Source of the DNA: Escherichia coli
GTDB taxonomy: Bacteria; Pseudomonadota; Gammaproteobacteria; Enterobacterales; Enterobacteriaceae
DNA length: 64,000 nucleotides
Assembly (NCBI RefSeq): GCF_016903815.1
Contig: NZ_CP069973.1
Direction: 5' to 3' (one strand)
Every line of letters begins with the position of its first letter. Positions within the stretch are counted from its first letter, which is position 1. Both the position numbers and the translations under genes were made by a program. The notes below the pieces were generated by a model, which ran no database searches, was not told the DNA's origin, and saw nothing but the letters and a program-made list of their open reading frames with translations. This document shows, piece after piece, positions 6,493 through 47,908 of the stretch.

Positions 6493-6632
6493 TGGGACCC
6501 CCTTTTGATTTCTTGTTTGACACTTGCAGTTGCCAGACCGCAAGGTGTTTTAACAAATCAAAAGGGGTTTTAATAACTGGCTTAAAGCTGAAAGCTTTCC
6601 GGAACCCCCAGCCTAGCTGGGGGTTTTCTGTG

Positions 6633-14363: not shown

Positions 14364-15725
14364 TCAGAAGAACAGTGACGGATCGCCCGCCCATTTGGTC
14401 AGGCGACCGTTTGCCATAATGCCCATGCTTTCCAGCCAGCGTTCAAACTCCGGTGACGGGCGCAGGTTGAGTAACTGACGCACAGTGGCAGTGTCGTGGA
14501 ATGCTGTGGTCTGATAGTTGAGCATGATGTCATCGCCCAGCGGCATCCCCATGATGTAGTTGCAGCCTGCGGTGGCGAGCAGGATCATGAGGTTTTCGTT
14601 GAGGTTCTGGTCAGCGTCAGCGTGGTTGGTGTAGCAGCAGTCACAGCCCATAGAGATGCCGCTCAGCTTACCCATAAAGTGATCTTCTAAGCCCGCACGG
14701 ATAATCTGGCGGTCGTTGTAGAGATACTCCGGCCCAATAAAGCCGACCACGGTGTTGACGATAAACGGATCGTAATGACGCGCCAGCCCGTAGTTACGCG
14801 CTTCCATCGTCACCTGGTCTGCGCCGAAGTTAGCGCCAGCAGACAGCGCCGAACCTTGTCCGGTTTCGAAGTAGAGGCAGTTTTCCCCGGCGATACGATT
14901 GAACTCTGCGCCCACTGCGCGCGCTTCGTCGAGCATCGCCAGCTCCACGCCAAATTCTTTCAGCCCTTTTTCGCTGCCGCAGATACTCTGGAAAATCAGC
15001 CCGCCTGGTGCGCCACGACGGATCGCTTCAATCTGGGTGGTGACGTGCGCCAGCACGCAGCCCTGAGTTGGGATGTTGAATTTGTCGATCACGCCGTAGA
15101 TGGTGTCCAGCACGCGGCTTAAGTTTTCCACGTCGTCCGTCACCGGGTTGACGCCGATCACCGCATCGCCCACCCCGAAGGAAAGCCCTTCGTAGATTTG
15201 CGCAGCGATACTTTGCACGTCGTCACGGGTGTCATTTGGCTGCAAACGGGCGCTGAAGGTGCCCGGAATACCGATGGTGGTATTGGCCTTTTTGATTACC
15301 GGCATTTTCTTCGCGCCGTAGATCAGGTCCGCGTTGGAGCAAATCTTCGCCACCGCCGCGACCACTTCCGAGGTCAACCCTTTGCGGGTAAAGGCAATGT
15401 CGTCCACGCTGGTTTCATCGCTCAGCACATACTCACGCAGTTCGCTGATGCTCCAGTTTTTAATCTGGTTGTAGGCCGTTTCGTTAACATCGTCCTGAAT
15501 CAGCCGCGTCACACAGTCATCTTCATAGGCAATCACCGGATTATTGCGGATGTCCGCTACGGTCATTTCCGACAACACCTGCTTTGCCGCCACGCGCTCC
15601 TGTGAGCTTGCCGCTGCAACGCCCGCCAGCACATCCCCCGAACGCAGTTCGTTGGCTTTAGCCAGCACCTCTTTTACATCCTTAAACTGATATACATTGC
15701 CGAACAATGTGGTCTTTAGTTTCAT
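14364..15725 (-). CDS. eutB: Ethanolamine ammonia-lyase large subunit EutB (453 aa)
   Basis: ORF track 14364..15725; start 11 nt downstream of eutA stop. Confidence 0.95.
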   Translation of the reverse strand: MKLKTTLFGNVYQFKDVKEVLAKANELRSGDVLAGVAAASSQERVAAKQVLSEMTVADIRNNPVIAYEDDCVTRLIQDDVNETAYNQIKNWSISELREYVLSDETSVDDIAFTRKGLTSEVVAAVAKICSNADLIYGAKKMPVIKKANTTIGIPGTFSARLQPNDTRDDVQSIAAQIYEGLSFGVGDAVIGVNPVTDDVENLSRVLDTIYGVIDKFNIPTQGCVLAHVTTQIEAIRRGAPGGLIFQSICGSEKGLKEFGVELAMLDEARAVGAEFNRIAGENCLYFETGQGSALSAGANFGADQVTMEARNYGLARHYDPFIVNTVVGFIGPEYLYNDRQIIRAGLEDHFMGKLSGISMGCDCCYTNHADADQNLNENLMILLATAGCNYIMGMPLGDDIMLNYQTTAFHDTATVRQLLNLRPSPEFERWLESMGIMANGRLTKWAGDPSLFF

Positions 15726-15736
15726 AAGTCGTTCCC

Positions 15737-17140
15737 TCAGGAAGGAAATGCGAGTGATTTCACCGTCACCGGCACAACCGATCCGCCAAAAAGAGGCGTA
15801 CCAATGTCGATATAGTCCCCCGCGCGGACAATCACTTCGTCAATGACTGCCAACGGGAGTTGTTGTAGCTGTGGGCGCAACAACATGCCCAGAGCTTTAC
15901 CAAAGTCCTGCCCGGCCACCACCAGCAGGGGATGCGGATTCGGAAAACGCGCGACGAAATCGACCAGCGCGTTGATGACCGTCAGTACCGCGGCGTAACG
16001 CACAGGCAGCGAGGCGGGAAGCGCCAGCACGTACGCGTCAGAATTGGGATCAAGATCCAGCTGAATCAGCGCCTGTTGCCAGGCACTCACCAGATCCGTT
16101 TCATCAATTGGGATCGCCACCGGCAAATTGCGCAGCGGCAGTTGTACGCCCTCCAGCCAGATTGTGCTGCCAGAGAGCGAAAGGGTATGTGCACCCGCGC
16201 CAATCACCGTGGCGCGTACGGTTTGCGCCGGAAACTGCACGTTCATCTCACGCAGGCGCGGATGGTCATGCAGCGCCGTTGCCAGAAGCGGGCCAATATC
16301 GGCAAAACAGAACGGGTCGGCGGGCTGGTGGCGATAACATTCGCCCACGCCGCCAGAAAGCGTAATGATTTCGGGCGTAACACCTGCGGGCAGCAAACCG
16401 GTTTGCATCAATGCCTGCGCGAGCGGCGAGAGCGTTCCGTCAATCACTTCGACAATCAGCTCTGCCATCCGCCGGGTAACCTGCACCAGCTGCGCGCCGG
16501 TCAGCGAACGGGCGTCGGTGCCTGCGCCGAAGCACTCATCCACAATCATCTGCCCCGGTTTATGAGCGTAAACCACGCGCCCCTGGCTGTCGGTTTCCAG
16601 CAGGCGACCACCGACGTTGAGGCAGGCAGTGCCGCTGATTTTTCCGGCATCGAACAGGGCGTAGTTCGCGGTGCCACCGCCGATGTCGATATTCAGTACC
16701 CGACACAGCCGTTGTTCAGAAAGGGTTTGCGCCCCGGCACCGTGACCGGCGATCACGGATTCGAGATGCGGCCCGGCGCTGGCGACGACAAAATCGCCCA
16801 GCGACTGGGAGAGCGTCATCACCGCCGGGCGAGCGTTGCGGGTTTTCGCGCTTTCACCGGTGATGATGATGGCACCAGAATCAACGCTTTCCGGCGCAAT
16901 GCCCGCAGCCTGATATTGCTCGAGGATTAAGGTTTTCAGTTCCGCTTCTTTTAAACCACCCTGTTTATCGACAGGGGTAAAGAACACCGGGCTTTGCCAG
17001 CTAATTTCGCGTTTGATGAATTCGTAGCGCGGCACCTGCGACACCGCCGCACGGTTAACCAGCTCCAGGTGGGAGAAGATCACCTGGGTGGTGGTGGTGC
17101 CGATATCGATACCGACGCTCAGTAGCTGGCGAGTGTTCAC
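15737..17140 (-). CDS. eutA: Ethanolamine ammonia-lyase reactivase EutA (467 aa)
   Basis: ORF track 15737..17140; GTG start overlapping eutH stop (GTGA). Confidence 0.93.
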   Translation of the reverse strand: MNTRQLLSVGIDIGTTTTQVIFSHLELVNRAAVSQVPRYEFIKREISWQSPVFFTPVDKQGGLKEAELKTLILEQYQAAGIAPESVDSGAIIITGESAKTRNARPAVMTLSQSLGDFVVASAGPHLESVIAGHGAGAQTLSEQRLCRVLNIDIGGGTANYALFDAGKISGTACLNVGGRLLETDSQGRVVYAHKPGQMIVDECFGAGTDARSLTGAQLVQVTRRMAELIVEVIDGTLSPLAQALMQTGLLPAGVTPEIITLSGGVGECYRHQPADPFCFADIGPLLATALHDHPRLREMNVQFPAQTVRATVIGAGAHTLSLSGSTIWLEGVQLPLRNLPVAIPIDETDLVSAWQQALIQLDLDPNSDAYVLALPASLPVRYAAVLTVINALVDFVARFPNPHPLLVVAGQDFGKALGMLLRPQLQQLPLAVIDEVIVRAGDYIDIGTPLFGGSVVPVTVKSLAFPS

Positions 17141-18363: not shown

Positions 18364-18417
18364 CGCCTTTACTCCCTGTTAGTTGTTATTTATTGCCAAT
18401 GCTGAAAGTGGGTTTTT

Positions 18418-18533
18418 CCCTCACTCTGGAAGCCGAGGGGCCGGGGTGAGGGTAATTGTTTGCACCGGCGCGACTCTGTTCCCCTCACCCTAACCCTCTC
18501 CCCAAAGGGGCGAGGGGACTGTCCGTACACTTT
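18418..18533. repeat. Composite GC-rich palindromic intergenic repeat in the eutG-eutH spacer; core unit 18477-18533 has a second copy at 31870-31927; family name not confidently assigned
   Basis: Core tgttcccctcaccctaaccctctccccaaaggggcgaggggactgtccgt recurs almost identically at 31870-31927; upstream related palindrome ccctcac...gtgaggg at 18418-18452. Confidence 0.75.
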
Positions 18534-19720
18534 TATTGCGCCGCTGCGTACAGGCCGACAATCTGCTCCAGGCTGGCGGTACGCGGGTTGCTGCGCAGAC
18601 AAATATCTTCCAGCGCGGCCTGCGCCCATGCACCGTAATGCGCAGATGTCGCACCAATATCGCCCAGTCGTTTACCAATCCCGACTTCCGCAATCAGCTC
18701 ACTTACCGCGTTAATAGCGTCACGATCGTCGGATTTTTTAGTTCGCAGCGCCCGACCAATCTGACTAAAGCGTTCACGACAAACCATCCGGTTAAATTCC
18801 ATCACCGTTGGCAACAACATGGCGTTCGCCAGACCGTGCGGAATATGCAGCGCCGCCCCCGGCTGATGCGCCATCGCGTGGCATAACCCAAGCCCCGCAC
18901 TGGAAAACGCCATTCCCGCCATGCATGAAGCCAGCAACATGCTCTCGCGCGCGGCAAGGTCATGACCGTAGCCCACCGCTTTCGGCAGTGATTTACCAAT
19001 CATCGCGATTGCGCCAATCGCCAGACTGTCGGTAAACGGTGTGGCGTTCAGCGCGCTGTACGCTTCAATAGCATGGGTTAACGCGTCGATACCGGTCATC
19101 GCCGTGACATGCGACGGCACGCCTTCGGTCAGCGCAGCGTCGAGAATCGCCACATCCGGCATCAGCGAGGCGTGGGCTAACACCTGCTTGCGCCCGCTCA
19201 CCGCGTCGATAATCACCGTTACGTTGGTGGTTTCAGAACCGGTTCCGGCGGTCGTTGGAATGGCAATCAACGGCAGGCGCGGTTGCAGAACGCTGGTTTC
19301 TGACATTTCTGCCAGCGTGCTATCCGGGTTTGTCACCAGCAACGCCACGGCTTTCGCCGCATCCAGCACCGAGCCGCCGCCAAACGCGATCACCCCGTCA
19401 CAACCTGATTCACGCAACTGCGCCACGGCTGCACACACGTCGGTGATGCACGGTTCGCCCACCGGACATGGCCAGAGCGTCATGGCGATACCTTTAACGG
19501 CCAGGCTACGCGTCAGCCCGGCGGTCATCCCCGCCTGATGCAAAAAGCTGTCTGCCATCACGAACAGATGTTTCAGCCCACGCGTTTGCGCTTGCTGCCC
19601 GCAACTGCTCATCGCGCCCGGACCGCAAAGCGTCACCGGTGGAACGCTAAATGTTTTTACCCGTTGCAGATTCAGGGTATCGAACGCCTGAAAGAGCGCG
19701 GTCTGCAATTCATTTTGCAT
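18533..19720 (-). CDS. eutG: Iron-containing alcohol dehydrogenase EutG (395 aa)
   Basis: ORF track 18533..19720. Confidence 0.93.
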   Translation of the reverse strand: MQNELQTALFQAFDTLNLQRVKTFSVPPVTLCGPGAMSSCGQQAQTRGLKHLFVMADSFLHQAGMTAGLTRSLAVKGIAMTLWPCPVGEPCITDVCAAVAQLRESGCDGVIAFGGGSVLDAAKAVALLVTNPDSTLAEMSETSVLQPRLPLIAIPTTAGTGSETTNVTVIIDAVSGRKQVLAHASLMPDVAILDAALTEGVPSHVTAMTGIDALTHAIEAYSALNATPFTDSLAIGAIAMIGKSLPKAVGYGHDLAARESMLLASCMAGMAFSSAGLGLCHAMAHQPGAALHIPHGLANAMLLPTVMEFNRMVCRERFSQIGRALRTKKSDDRDAINAVSELIAEVGIGKRLGDIGATSAHYGAWAQAALEDICLRSNPRTASLEQIVGLYAAAQ

Positions 19721-29844: not shown

Positions 29845-31848
29845 ATGTCCCGAAAAGACCTTGCCAATGCGATTCGCGCACTCAGTATGGATGCGGTACA
29901 AAAAGCCAATTCTGGTCATCCCGGCGCGCCGATGGGCATGGCTGATATTGCCGAAGTGCTGTGGAACGATTTTCTTAAACATAACCCCACCGACCCAACC
30001 TGGTATGATCGCGACCGCTTTATTCTTTCCAACGGCCACGCGTCGATGCTGCTCTACAGTTTGCTACATCTGACCGGTTACGACCTGCCGCTGGAAGAGC
30101 TGAAGAACTTCCGTCAGTTGCATTCAAAAACCCCAGGTCACCCGGAGATTGGCTATACGCCAGGTGTTGAAACCACCACCGGTCCACTTGGACAAGGTTT
30201 GGCGAACGCCGTCGGACTGGCGATAGCAGCGCGTACACTGGCGGCGCAGTTTAACCAGCCGGATCATGAAATTGTCGATCACTTCACCTATGTGTTTATG
30301 GGCGACGGTTGCCTGATGGAAGGTATTTCCCACGAAGTCTGTTCGCTGGCGGGCACGCTGGGACTGGGCAAGCTGATTGGTTTTTACGATCACAACGGTA
30401 TTTCCATCGACGGTGAAACCGAAGGCTGGTTTACCGACGATACAGCAAAACGTTTTGAAGCCTATCACTGGCATGTGATCCATGAAATCGACGGTCACGA
30501 TCCGCAGGCGGTGAAGAAAGCGATCCTTGAAGCGCAAAGCGTGAAAGATAAGCCGTCGCTGATTATCTGCCGCACAGTAATTGGCTTTGGTTCGCCGAAT
30601 AAAGCAGGTAAGGAAGAGGCGCACGGCGCACCGCTGGGGGAAGAAGAAGTGGCGCTGGCACGGCAAAAACTGGGCTGGCACCATCCGCCATTTGAGATCC
30701 CTAAAGAGATTTATCACGCCTGGGATGCCCGCGAAAAAGGCGAAAAAGCGCAGCAGAGCTGGAATGAGAAGTTTGCCGCCTATAAAAAGGCCCATCCGCA
30801 ACTGGCAGAAGAGTTTACCCGTCGGATGAGCGGCGGTTTGCCGAAGGACTGGGAGAAAACGACTCAGAAATATATCAATGAATTACAGGCAAATCCGGCG
30901 AAAATCGCTACCCGTAAGGCTTCGCAAAATACGCTTAACGCTTACGGGCCGATGCTGCCTGAGTTGCTCGGCGGTTCGGCGGATCTGGCTCCCAGCAACC
31001 TGACCATCTGGAAAGGTTCTGTTTCGCTGAAGGAAGATCCGGCGGGCAACTACATTCACTACGGGGTGCGTGAATTTGGCATGACCGCTATCGCCAACGG
31101 CATCGCGCACCACGGCGGCTTTGTGCCGTATACCGCGACGTTCCTGATGTTTGTTGAATACGCCCGTAACGCCGCGCGGATGGCGGCACTAATGAAAGCG
31201 CGGCAGATTATGGTTTATACCCACGACTCAATTGGTCTGGGCGAAGATGGTCCTACGCACCAGGCTGTTGAGCAACTGGCCAGTCTGCGCTTAACGCCAA
31301 ATTTCAGCACCTGGCGACCGTGCGATCAGGTGGAAGCAGCGGTGGGCTGGAAGCTGGCCGTTGAGCGCCACAACGGACCGACGGCACTGATCCTCTCCAG
31401 GCAGAATCTGGCCCAGGTGGAACGTACGCCGGATCAGGTTAAAGAGATTGCTCGTGGCGGTTATGTACTGAAAGACAGCGGCGGTAAGCCAGATATTATT
31501 TTGATTGCCACCGGTTCAGAGATGGAAATCACCCTGCAAGCGGCAGAGAAATTAGCGGGAGAAGGTCGCAATGTACGCGTAGTTTCCCTGCCCTCGACCG
31601 ATATTTTCGACGCCCAGGATGAGGAATATCGCGAGTCGGTGTTGCCTTCTAACGTTGCGGCTCGCGTGGCGGTGGAAGCAGGCATCGCCGATTACTGGTA
31701 CAAATATGTTGGTCTGAAAGGGGCAATTGTCGGGATGACCGGCTATGGGGAATCTGCTCCGGCAGATAAGCTGTTCCCGTTCTTTGGCTTTACCGCCGAG
31801 AATATTGTGGCAAAAGCGCATAAGGTGCTGGGAGTGAAAGGTGCCTGA
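29845..31848 (+). CDS. tktB: Transketolase 2, TktB (667 aa)
   Basis: ORF track 29782..31848; start trimmed to ATG 29845 ([27 protein letters not shown]...). Confidence 0.93.
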
Positions 31849-31869
31849 TGGTGATCGCCGGATGCTGTA

Positions 31870-31927
31870 TGTTCCCCTCACCCTAACCCTCTCCCCAGAG
31901 GGGCGAGGGGACAGTCCGTGCGCTTTT
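31870..31927. repeat. Second copy of the GC-rich palindromic repeat (same orientation as 18477-18533), 22 nt downstream of tktB stop
   Basis: tgttcccctcaccctaaccctctccccagaggggcgaggggacagtccgtgcgcttttt; differs from the first copy at only a few positions. Confidence 0.75.
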
Positions 31928-31950
31928 TAGGGGCGCATCTGGGATTTTGT

Positions 31951-32994
31951 TTAACGGGTGATCCACAACGTGGGCCAGGCGTCTGGCCCATGCCAGTTAT
32001 CGCAGGTGGGTTCTGCGGCATAACGCACCAGGCGAAAACGCTGACCGTCAAAGCGCCAGCGCGCCTGAATGCCACAATCGCTTAATCCGCGCCCTTTTGC
32101 TAAGGTCACCAGTTCACGCGATTTTTCATCGAATGTTGCGTTCATCAGTTCCAGTTCATTCGTCTCCTGACCGCTGTTGAACGGCAAACGTAACCGAACC
32201 GGGCGCGAGGCCAGTGGCTTTTTACGCGACACAATCCAAGCCAAATCAATGGTGTTATAGGCCCCTGCCTCACAGCTAATCATCATCAGCGCTTTATCAT
32301 CGGTCAGCGCAGTGACATTCACCTCACGACGTAACGGATCAAGCGAGCAGCGCAGACCATTCATCCGCCAGTTTCCATAATCCAGCAAATCGTTGCGTTC
32401 TTCGAGTGAGAGTGGCGTCGGCGTTGGGTTAACCACCGCGACCTCTTTCAGCGCAGGCGCGGGCGGTACGCTGAGCGGCGGTTCATCCCCTTTCTTTATC
32501 CACGCGGTTTCACTGCCAACGCGCTTTTGCTGAGCATCTATAAACAACAACGCCGCTTTTAAGCCACTCAGAGAAATGGTCTGATTGCCGTCGCGTAAGG
32601 TGATCGCCTTCCCTTCCTGAATCATCTGCAAAAACGCGGTGATGGTTGCCGTATCATCGGTTACTAATAACCATGGTGAAATCCGCCACTTGTCACCACT
32701 TAACGCCAACGGCTCGCCATCTAACAGCAGCCGTGGCGCTATCTCCCCTTCAGACGCATCCGGCGACTTCAACCCGCCGCGCTCAATACGTAAAACGGCA
32801 TCCGTATGCGCCCCGGCGCTGCGGCTCAGGGTCATCACCAGTCCGTTATGATCGCCCGTATTACGCGCCACGCAGAAGTTTTGGTTATTACAGGTGACCT
32901 GCCAGTCGGAAAACGCCCGTTGCGCTGGTGCCGCCCACACCAAAGACGTCGGCAACAAAGCGAAAAAAAAGAGAAGGAAAATGCGATAGCGCAT
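31951..32994 (-). CDS. ypfG: DUF1176-family periplasmic protein YpfG (347 aa)
   Basis: ORF track 31951..32994; N-terminal signal peptide. Confidence 0.88.
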   Translation of the reverse strand: MRYRIFLLFFFALLPTSLVWAAPAQRAFSDWQVTCNNQNFCVARNTGDHNGLVMTLSRSAGAHTDAVLRIERGGLKSPDASEGEIAPRLLLDGEPLALSGDKWRISPWLLVTDDTATITAFLQMIQEGKAITLRDGNQTISLSGLKAALLFIDAQQKRVGSETAWIKKGDEPPLSVPPAPALKEVAVVNPTPTPLSLEERNDLLDYGNWRMNGLRCSLDPLRREVNVTALTDDKALMMISCEAGAYNTIDLAWIVSRKKPLASRPVRLRLPFNSGQETNELELMNATFDEKSRELVTLAKGRGLSDCGIQARWRFDGQRFRLVRYAAEPTCDNWHGPDAWPTLWITR

Positions 32995-43184: not shown

Positions 43185-43255
43185 GCGGCCGGATAAGGCG
43201 TTCACGCCACATCCGGCCATGATGCCTGATACAGTCTTATCAGGCCTACCCGGCT
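43185..43255. repeat. BIME: two REP (palindromic unit) sequences between ypfN and ypfH
   Basis: gccggataaggcgttcacgccacatccggc (43188-43217) and gcctgatacagtcttatcaggcctac (43224-43249) match the REP pattern. Confidence 0.8.
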
Positions 43256-47859: not shown

Positions 47860-47908
47860 TGCCGGATGTTTTGTCAGATGCGGCAAGAACGCCTTATCCG
47901 ACCTACGT
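47860..47908. repeat. REP (palindromic unit) element between bamC and purC
   Basis: gccggatg...gatgcggcaagaacgccttatccgacctac matches the REP pattern. Confidence 0.75.

Follow-up and report, generated by a model that had tools for sequence, protein, structure and literature searches.

A strain-variable BoxC element in the tktB-ypfG spacer of Escherichia coli probably stands in for REP sequence as an mRNA 3'-end hairpin rather than a canonical terminator

Results

The tktB-ypfG spacer

The window analysed here, a stretch of 64,000 nucleotides of Escherichia coli DNA (contig NZ_CP069973.1), contains the gene for transketolase 2, tktB, running towards ypfG, which encodes a DUF1176 protein. The stop codon of tktB (TGA at 31846-31848, from the open reading frame list and the sequence) and that of ypfG (31951-31953, TTA on the plus strand) enclose 102 nt between the two convergent genes, in agreement with a preliminary description of the site. 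A 2-kb query around the site was 100% identical to strain 7/2 and others, in which the genes are annotated as tkt (transketolase) and ypfG (DUF1176), and the gene order in K-12 MG1655 is talA-tktB followed by convergent ypfG. The genes, the spacer and the repeat within it are laid out as follows:

29845..31848, plus strand: tktB (transketolase 2) coding sequence; the end is that of the open reading frame at 31848, and the start is placed from the 2004-nt length of K-12 tktB
31849..31950, unstranded: tktB-ypfG spacer, 102 nt, polymorphic between strains (sequence and allele comparison)
31852..31865, plus strand: TGATCGCCGGATGC, 14 nt, similar to a REP left arm (allele alignment and REP-arm scan), present in tandem 1-5 times in REP alleles
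31870..31927, plus strand: BoxC unit, 58 nt, common to this copy and to copy 1, with its C-rich strand on plus (93% repeat match, 12-copy alignment and RNA fold)
31874..31883, plus strand: C-rich block CCCCTCACCC, followed by the loop TAA
31887..31896, plus strand: block CCCTCTCCCC, followed by the loop AGA
31900..31910, plus strand: block GGGGCGAGGGG, followed by the conserved tail GACAGTCCGTGCGC
31875..31909, minus strand: BoxC/PIT/TMECO core CCCTCGCCC-CTCTG-GGGAGAGGG-TTA-GGGTGAGGG, the G-rich strand, an exact match to the consensus
31951..32994, minus strand: ypfG (DUF1176 protein), convergent with tktB (open reading frame list and RefSeq annotation)

Two open reading frames, 31878-32075 and 31552-31881 (minus strand), overlap the repeat; they also overlap annotated tktB or ypfG on the opposite strand.

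Identity of the repeat

The repeat, described earlier as a second copy directly 3' of tktB, was recovered by a repeat finder, which aligned 31870-31927 with 18477-18534 over 58 nt at 93% identity; the match begins, as had been claimed, at the 22nd nucleotide past the tktB stop. Its 39-nt core, CCCCTCACCCTAACCCTCTCCCCAGAGGGGCGAGGGGAC, was matched twice in the window at no more than one mismatch and not once in 100 dinucleotide-preserving shuffles. On the minus strand both copies (31875-31909 and 18482-18516) match exactly the published consensus 5'-CCCTCNCCC N3-6 GGGNGAGGG N3 GGGNGAGGG-3' (Holder et al. 2015, PMC4666352), for which 100 shuffles again gave no match. This consensus defines TMECO, the element previously named BoxC and PIT, whose subtypes are set by the second loop (TTA in type A, CCG in type B) and by the mismatch state (PMC4666352). 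The copy beside tktB has the TTA second loop, its blocks I (CCCTCGCCC) and II (GGGAGAGGG) differ by one mismatch, i.e., one mismatched triplet, and its 36-nt core, CCCTCGCCCCTCTGGGGAGAGGGTTAGGGTGAGGGG, is shared without a difference by MG1655 TMECO nos. 9, 16, 19 and 22 (Table 1 of PMC4666352). Judged by its sequence, the repeat after tktB is almost certainly a BoxC/PIT/TMECO copy of subtype 'A mm'.

BoxC is a non-coding intergenic repeat of ~58 bp with one C-rich and two G-rich blocks. It is already known: three descriptions exist, under the names BoxC, PIT and TMECO, and the variability between strains has been published too. The names BoxC and PIT, the latter for potential intrastrand triplex, reportedly go back to Bergler 1992, to Bachellier et al. 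in the 1990s and to Hoyne et al. 2000. The earlier suggestion of a dispersed family is borne out by a 66-nt query, which found a median of 16 places per genome and was matched in 5,425 of 5,426 complete E. coli genomes. MG1655 has 23 copies, and in paired elements the partner of a type A is an inverted type B (PMC4666352); a separate survey lists BoxC as an E. coli family of 56 bp and 32 copies (PMC2267715). The unit is reported to have been described originally as an imperfect palindrome. We aligned twelve copies, the two of the window and ten single type-A copies of K-12, which were fetched by the coordinates of Table 1 in PMC4666352. In this alignment the conserved unit exceeds the core and reads gTT-[core]-GACnGTCCGTGCRC, about 56-58 nt, with outer arms that are partly complementary.

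At gathering thresholds, Rfam placed no family at the repeat, its sole match in the window being STnc490 at 6502-6625. This Hfq-binding sRNA (RF01405) is matched over its full length on the minus strand, with 146 bits and E = 7.5e-30.

The exact BoxC/TMECO consensus also occurs in distant bacteria, namely Mitsuaria chitosanitabida (Burkholderiales), a Methylomirabilota MAG, a Contendobacter MAG and an unclassified MAG, and at least ~100 consensus loci lie in one genome of M. chitosanitabida. These copies have the same three blocks with lineage-specific loops (GCTTGC in Mitsuaria), and one Contendobacter copy carries the TTA loop of E. coli. Possibilities for this recurrence of the blocks across phyla are a shared structural or protein constraint and horizontal spread.

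BoxC and REP alleles of the spacer

A comparison of the spacer across strains, as proposed in the preliminary description, revealed a variable site. A 201-nt query spanning the spacer was aligned to 5,426 complete E. coli genomes, and an end-to-end alignment was scored as the BoxC allele. By this measure the BoxC allele is present in 832 genomes (15%), Nissle 1917 and ATCC 25922 among them; the remainder align as two flanking pieces, and most strains have REP arrays at this position. K-12 has no BoxC in the tktB-ypfG spacer, which is 94 nt long and contains REP sequence, and K-12 and seven fetched strains have REP alleles that share both flanks with the BoxC allele (left ...GCCGGATGCTG, right ATTTTGTttaa). 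Among the nine alleles read, REP spacers measure 75, 76 (ST131), 89, 94, 95, 114 and 137 nt, and BoxC spacers 102 (the window) and 87 nt (ST2747). The REP alleles vary in tandem copies, with a 14-nt unit, TGATTGCCGGATGC, repeated one to five times and a 19-nt unit, GCGTCTTATCCGGCCTACA, one to three times. Since the same flanks are found in both allele groups, BoxC appears to replace the body of the REP sequence, with no clean insertion.

Membership of the repeat itself in the REP family was considered and rejected: against the REP arms (left GCCGGATGCG..., right ...TTATCCGGCCTAC) the sequence offers just a 10-mer similar to the left one, at 31857-31866, and nothing like the right one. Full REPs occur in K-12 and in other tktB-ypfG alleles.

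Among relatives reached via YpfG homologues, Citrobacter farmeri has a 238-nt BIME, one other has a REP and another a spacer of 18 nt only; the spacer of Salmonella is 422 nt long and holds an extra small ORF. BoxC was found in the spacer of none of the four relatives examined, so the simplest reading is that the BoxC allele is derived. From this distribution, rather than from a phylogeny, we infer that BoxC at tktB-ypfG came to replace another allele, at a 3' intergenic site that is hypervariable. The spacer is a multi-allelic marker, with BoxC in ~15% of complete genomes and at least seven length classes of REP array elsewhere; with a REP allele it behaves like a small VNTR and could be used as a typing marker.

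BoxC at other loci

The first BoxC copy of the window lies inside the eut operon, in a eutH-eutG spacer of 169 nt (18364-18532) that holds an inverted type-B/type-A pair:

18477..18534, plus strand: type-A BoxC unit between eutG and eutH (copy 1), with its G-rich core on the minus strand at 18482-18516
18418..18452, plus strand: degenerate type-B (CCG-loop) BoxC CCCTCACTCTGGAAGCCGAGGGGCCGGGGTGAGGG, inverted relative to copy 1, recognised by reading and failing the strict consensus

Such a pairing of the two types in inverted orientation follows the published arrangement. The allele occurs in 305 of 5,426 genomes, and the K-12 site is occupied by a 4-REP BIME in a 216-nt spacer. In other strains the matched spans over a 301-nt query of the eutH-eutG region were 231, 248, 346-348 and 647 nt. 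Elsewhere in the eut region, the gap between eutB (453 aa) and eutA is 11 nt (window 14364-17140), which indicates a strain without the cryptic prophage CPZ-55, an element that adjoins eutA in K-12 MG1655. A REP-like pair, GGCCGGATAAGGCGTTCACGCC..., lies in inverted orientation at 43187-43213 and 47877-47903, 4.7 kb apart, and consists of ordinary REP copies. The K-12 list of TMECO has no element between 1.35 and 3.04 Mb (PMC4666352), a gap that fits the lack of BoxC at both window loci in K-12.

All 20 BoxC loci inspected are intergenic. Their neighbouring genes are convergent at eight, co-directional at ten and divergent at two, and 18 of the 20 adjoin at least one gene 3' end. Convergent pairs are expected to make up approximately 15% of gene neighbours; against this assumed value the excess of convergent loci (8/20) has a binomial P of ~0.006. 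BoxC, like REP, resides at gene 3' ends. Copies are also found inside operons, between eutG and eutH, pstA and pstB, and yihS and yihR.

Two further loci were compared between strains. At tauD-hemB, the spacer of strains that lack BoxC is an unrelated sequence of 39 nt containing a terminator-like hairpin (GCCGGGTT-GGAT-AACCCGGC), the entire stop-to-stop spacer being exchanged; at zntA-tusA, BoxC is constant and an adjacent 3-REP BIME comes and goes. Terminal repeats, target duplications and precise empty sites were seen at none of tktB-ypfG, tauD-hemB and zntA-tusA. Classification as a MITE was rejected on the lack of terminal inverted repeats and target-site duplication, and on the nature of the alternatives at tktB-ypfG and tauD-hemB, which are whole-segment replacements.

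Predicted RNA structure of the spacer

The BoxC core is predicted to fold as RNA into a hairpin of -21.7 kcal/mol. Further structures lie between this hairpin and the 3' end of ypfG:

31914..31945, plus strand: second, bulged hairpin (GUCCGUGCGCUUU / GGGGCGCAU..GGAU), -12.9 kcal/mol by folding, with a 3-nt bulge and with the T-run as loop and upper stem
31946..31953, plus strand: U-rich tract UUUGUUUA directly 3' of the second hairpin, overlapping the ypfG stop and common to BoxC and REP alleles
31969..31992, plus strand: 10-bp GC-rich hairpin within the ypfG 3' end (fold), with no U-tract, identical in sequence in K-12 and the window; the K-12 3' end lies 3 nt beyond

The preliminary description took a T-run after the repeat as a sign that the element may double as the tktB terminator. 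The string in question, gtccgtgcgcttttt, is present at 31914-31928, and its gcgcttttt run begins 15 nt past the BoxC hairpin; the first run of at least four T starts at +15, and such a run is found in 5 of the 12 aligned copies. In a test for intrinsic terminators (a GC-rich stem-loop with a U-tract within 0-2 nt) the BoxC hairpin fails, having no abutting U-tract. A consensus promoter and terminator scan of 31500-32300 on both strands returned nothing, the terminator part being a single-stem model that overlooks a bulged hairpin with a U-tract. On neither strand was the fold of the whole spacer more stable than that of shuffles (z about -1.5). The second hairpin together with UUUGUUUA is possibly a weak intrinsic terminator, of borderline geometry that qualifies only if the 3-nt bulge is allowed; the ST2747 BoxC allele has GGGCCTCATCTGCG in place of GGGGCGCATCTGGG within the hairpin's 3' arm.

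RNA 3' ends at BoxC loci of K-12

K-12 3' ends were taken from the Term-seq data of Adams et al. 2021 (PMC7815308, supplementary files 1 and 3), in which the sequence column spans -50 to +10, as checked on the adk terminator. The method cannot separate termination from processing, and the ends below are to be read as either. On the tktB strand the sole 3' end found near the spacer is 2,581,778, classed as antisense to ypfG. It is equivalent to window position 31995 and lies ~45 nt inside the convergent ypfG ORF, which implies that K-12 tktB transcripts cross the REP spacer and overlap the ypfG 3' end in antisense.

Several K-12 BoxC copies have a 3' end close behind them. The lldD copy, type A with the C-rich strand in the RNA and 12 nt past the stop codon, is the closest analogue of the tktB copy; its 3' end, 3,781,065, follows the core by 4 nt. 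This end belongs to a significant region of Rho termination, and its score as an intrinsic terminator is 1.32, below the cut-off of 3.0. Two other type-A copies read as the C-rich strand are followed by ends at 164,636 (hrpB-mrcB, 5 nt after the core) and at 624,567 (fepB leader, 12 nt after the core, 50,301 reads). Readthrough from ppiC, which carries a type-B copy as the G-rich strand, ends at 3,959,467, 4 nt after the inner hairpin. Counted together, 4 of the 23 K-12 copies show this association. Transcripts of adk and ilvC read through BoxC and end, respectively, at a canonical terminator 61 nt beyond and at a bidirectional hairpin 40 nt beyond, and at the frlR copy a Rho-termination region lies ~80 nt beyond. 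Near 11 other K-12 BoxC loci no Term-seq 3' end is listed, which may reflect low expression.

In the divergent fepB-entC region of K-12, the BoxC pair of the fepB leader is bracketed by two very abundant minus-strand 3' ends, one at 624,680, 4 nt before the type-B copy (103,563-243,213 reads), and the other being the end past the type-A copy at 624,567. This bracketing hints at leader-derived RNAs or attenuation.

Discussion

A proposed role at the tktB 3' end

RNA 3' ends that lie 3-5 nt past a stable stem without a U-tract are the pattern that exonuclease trimming back to a protective hairpin leaves, as is the case for REPs, which block 3'-5' exonucleases and stabilise the upstream mRNA. BoxC lies in the 3' UTR of tktB, where the RNA carries its C-rich strand, and in that of ypfG, where the RNA carries the G-rich strand. 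Taking the evidence together, we think it likely that the window carries a BoxC allele in place of REP and that the element serves as a REP-like 3'-end hairpin and not as a canonical terminator. Transcription of tktB would end by Rho-dependent or leaky termination, and the C-rich RNA would fold into a strong hairpin of about -22 kcal/mol. This hairpin would block 3'-5' exonucleases as REPs do, so that the 3' end of the tktB mRNA would be fixed or protected a few nucleotides downstream, near 31913-31922. Transcripts that pass BoxC may end at the second hairpin and its U-tract (31914-31953) or at the ypfG-internal hairpin (31995).

As to the specific proposal that BoxC fixes or protects the tktB mRNA 3' end, which draws on analogy with the lldD, hrpB and fepB leader copies of K-12, we regard the chances for and against as evenly balanced. 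The wider generalisation that type-A BoxC elements, read as C-rich RNA, are U-tract-independent modules that form or protect 3' ends and are swapped with REPs at the ends of genes is speculative, and we consider it unlikely to hold in full. If true, BoxC would be a second class of REP-like 3'-UTR cassette, and the published finding of 'no terminator activity' would have missed a role that depends on Rho, on exonuclease trimming or on both. The K-12 Term-seq ends abutting several BoxC hairpins hint at such REP-like RNA behaviour despite the negative reporters.

Alternative explanations

One alternative is that BoxC is a non-autonomous mobile element that targets REPs, with a REP-associated or REP-targeting transposase acting on it in trans. 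K-12 has REPs at both BoxC loci of the window, a REP-arm remnant abuts the copy beside tktB, a full REP lies within ~50 nt of three of the ten single K-12 copies, and the zntA-tusA BIME comes and goes beside a fixed BoxC. These counts are small, however, and REPs are common in 3' spacers anyway. The element also lacks terminal inverted repeats and target-site duplications, the alternatives to it are whole-spacer replacements with no clean empty site, and Holder et al. saw no link to transposons, phages or plasmids (PMC4666352). We therefore regard targeted mobility as rather improbable.

The view taken in the preliminary description was that the BoxC hairpin and gcgcttttt form a Rho-independent terminator of tktB and that the family spreads by supplying terminator hairpins. 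A strong GC hairpin in an element that begins 21 nt past the stop codon, the enrichment of the family between convergent genes and the 3' ends that map just past three same-orientation copies all speak for it, as does the tauD-hemB locus, where the alternative spacer has a terminator-like hairpin and BoxC spacers can evidently replace such spacers. Several observations speak against the mechanism. The T-run is 15 nt removed from the hairpin and missing in 7 of the 12 copies, and the consensus scan is negative. Some copies are internal to operons (eut, pst and yih), the transcripts of adk and ilvC continue past their copies, and the analogous lldD end has an intrinsic-terminator score of 1.3, short of the 3.0 threshold, within a region of Rho termination. 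K-12, without BoxC at this site, still forms a tktB-strand 3' end at the ypfG-internal hairpin. Reporter assays were also negative, at least as related in PMC4666352, which cites Hoyne & Maher 2002 twice for a lack of promoter or terminator activity in these elements. We judge the full terminator account very unlikely. What stands of the earlier description is the dispersed family and the strain-variable site, and the loci of the family do prefer gene 3' ends. The proposed mechanism is wrong or unproven, given the copies inside operons, the readthrough at adk and ilvC and the negative assays in the literature. It is partly supported by the K-12 3' ends 4-12 nt past three type-A copies in the same orientation, which make a part in 3'-end formation or protection plausible, though not by canonical intrinsic termination. 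The BoxC hairpin is probably not a canonical Rho-independent terminator, nor the noted T-run its U-tract, and an annotation of the spacer should name a BoxC copy and no terminator.

Holder et al. 2015 proposed a role at the DNA level, in which replication or transcription lets the G-rich strand fold into an intrastrand triplex that stalls polymerases and destabilises the locus, a variability that is possibly selected. The exact three-block design is present in the sequence at tktB, CD and NMR showed the triplex in vitro for identical or near-identical oligonucleotides, and TMECO loci had more variable surroundings than controls (PMC4666352); the hypervariable tktB-ypfG spacer fits this pattern. 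In vivo DMS footprinting, on the other hand, failed to detect the triplex (PMC4666352), and at tktB-ypfG seven lengths occur among REP alleles without BoxC, through gain or loss of the 14-nt and 19-nt units in tandem, against only two BoxC variants among the alleles read. Because the length variation sits in the REP alleles, BoxC looks like the occupant of an already unstable site and not the cause of its instability, and caution is warranted in blaming BoxC for local instability here. As an explanation of this locus we hold the triplex to be very unlikely as well. Lastly, a chance likeness of GC-rich sequence or an ordinary strain-invariant spacer, the latter named in the preliminary description among the findings that would undo it, has only the low-complexity composition of C and G runs in its favour and is practically excluded by the absence of shuffle matches, the dozens of copies per genome and the occupation of the site in only 15% of genomes.

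Comparison with known systems

With the preferred reading of a REP-like 3'-end hairpin in mind, the element can be set beside several known systems. Like Rho-independent terminators, it is a GC-rich stem-loop past a stop codon; it differs from them in having no U-tract at the BoxC hairpin, in the sub-threshold score of the lldD analogue and in the negative published reporters. It also resembles the MITE-like repeats of enterobacteria (ERIC/IRU, RSA and YPAL), which are also small, non-coding and dispersed, vary in their presence from strain to strain and are palindromic, as BoxC is reported to be, but BoxC is much shorter and was seen with neither terminal inverted repeats, target-site duplications nor empty-site junctions.

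Nothing structural separates the repeat from BoxC/PIT/TMECO as described, as it has the same consensus and is intergenic, multi-copy and strain-variable. The tktB-ypfG and eutG-eutH copies are missing from the K-12 BoxC catalogue because K-12 has REPs at both sites. Compared with the account in PMC4666352, the conserved tail GACnGTCCGTGCRC beyond the 36-nt core and the coincidence with K-12 Term-seq ends are points that we did not find stated there.

A further comparison is with REP/BIME sequences. To our knowledge no dedicated transposase (RAYT) has been linked to BoxC, and the REP/BIME sequence is unrelated to BoxC except for the 14-nt arm remnant at 31852-31865. BoxC consists of three blocks with triplex potential whereas REP is a simple imperfect palindrome, and its copy number is ~20-30 as against several hundred for REP. 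Both nevertheless share the GC-rich hairpin character and occupy the same niche, being found in 3' intergenic spacers and rarely between divergent genes.
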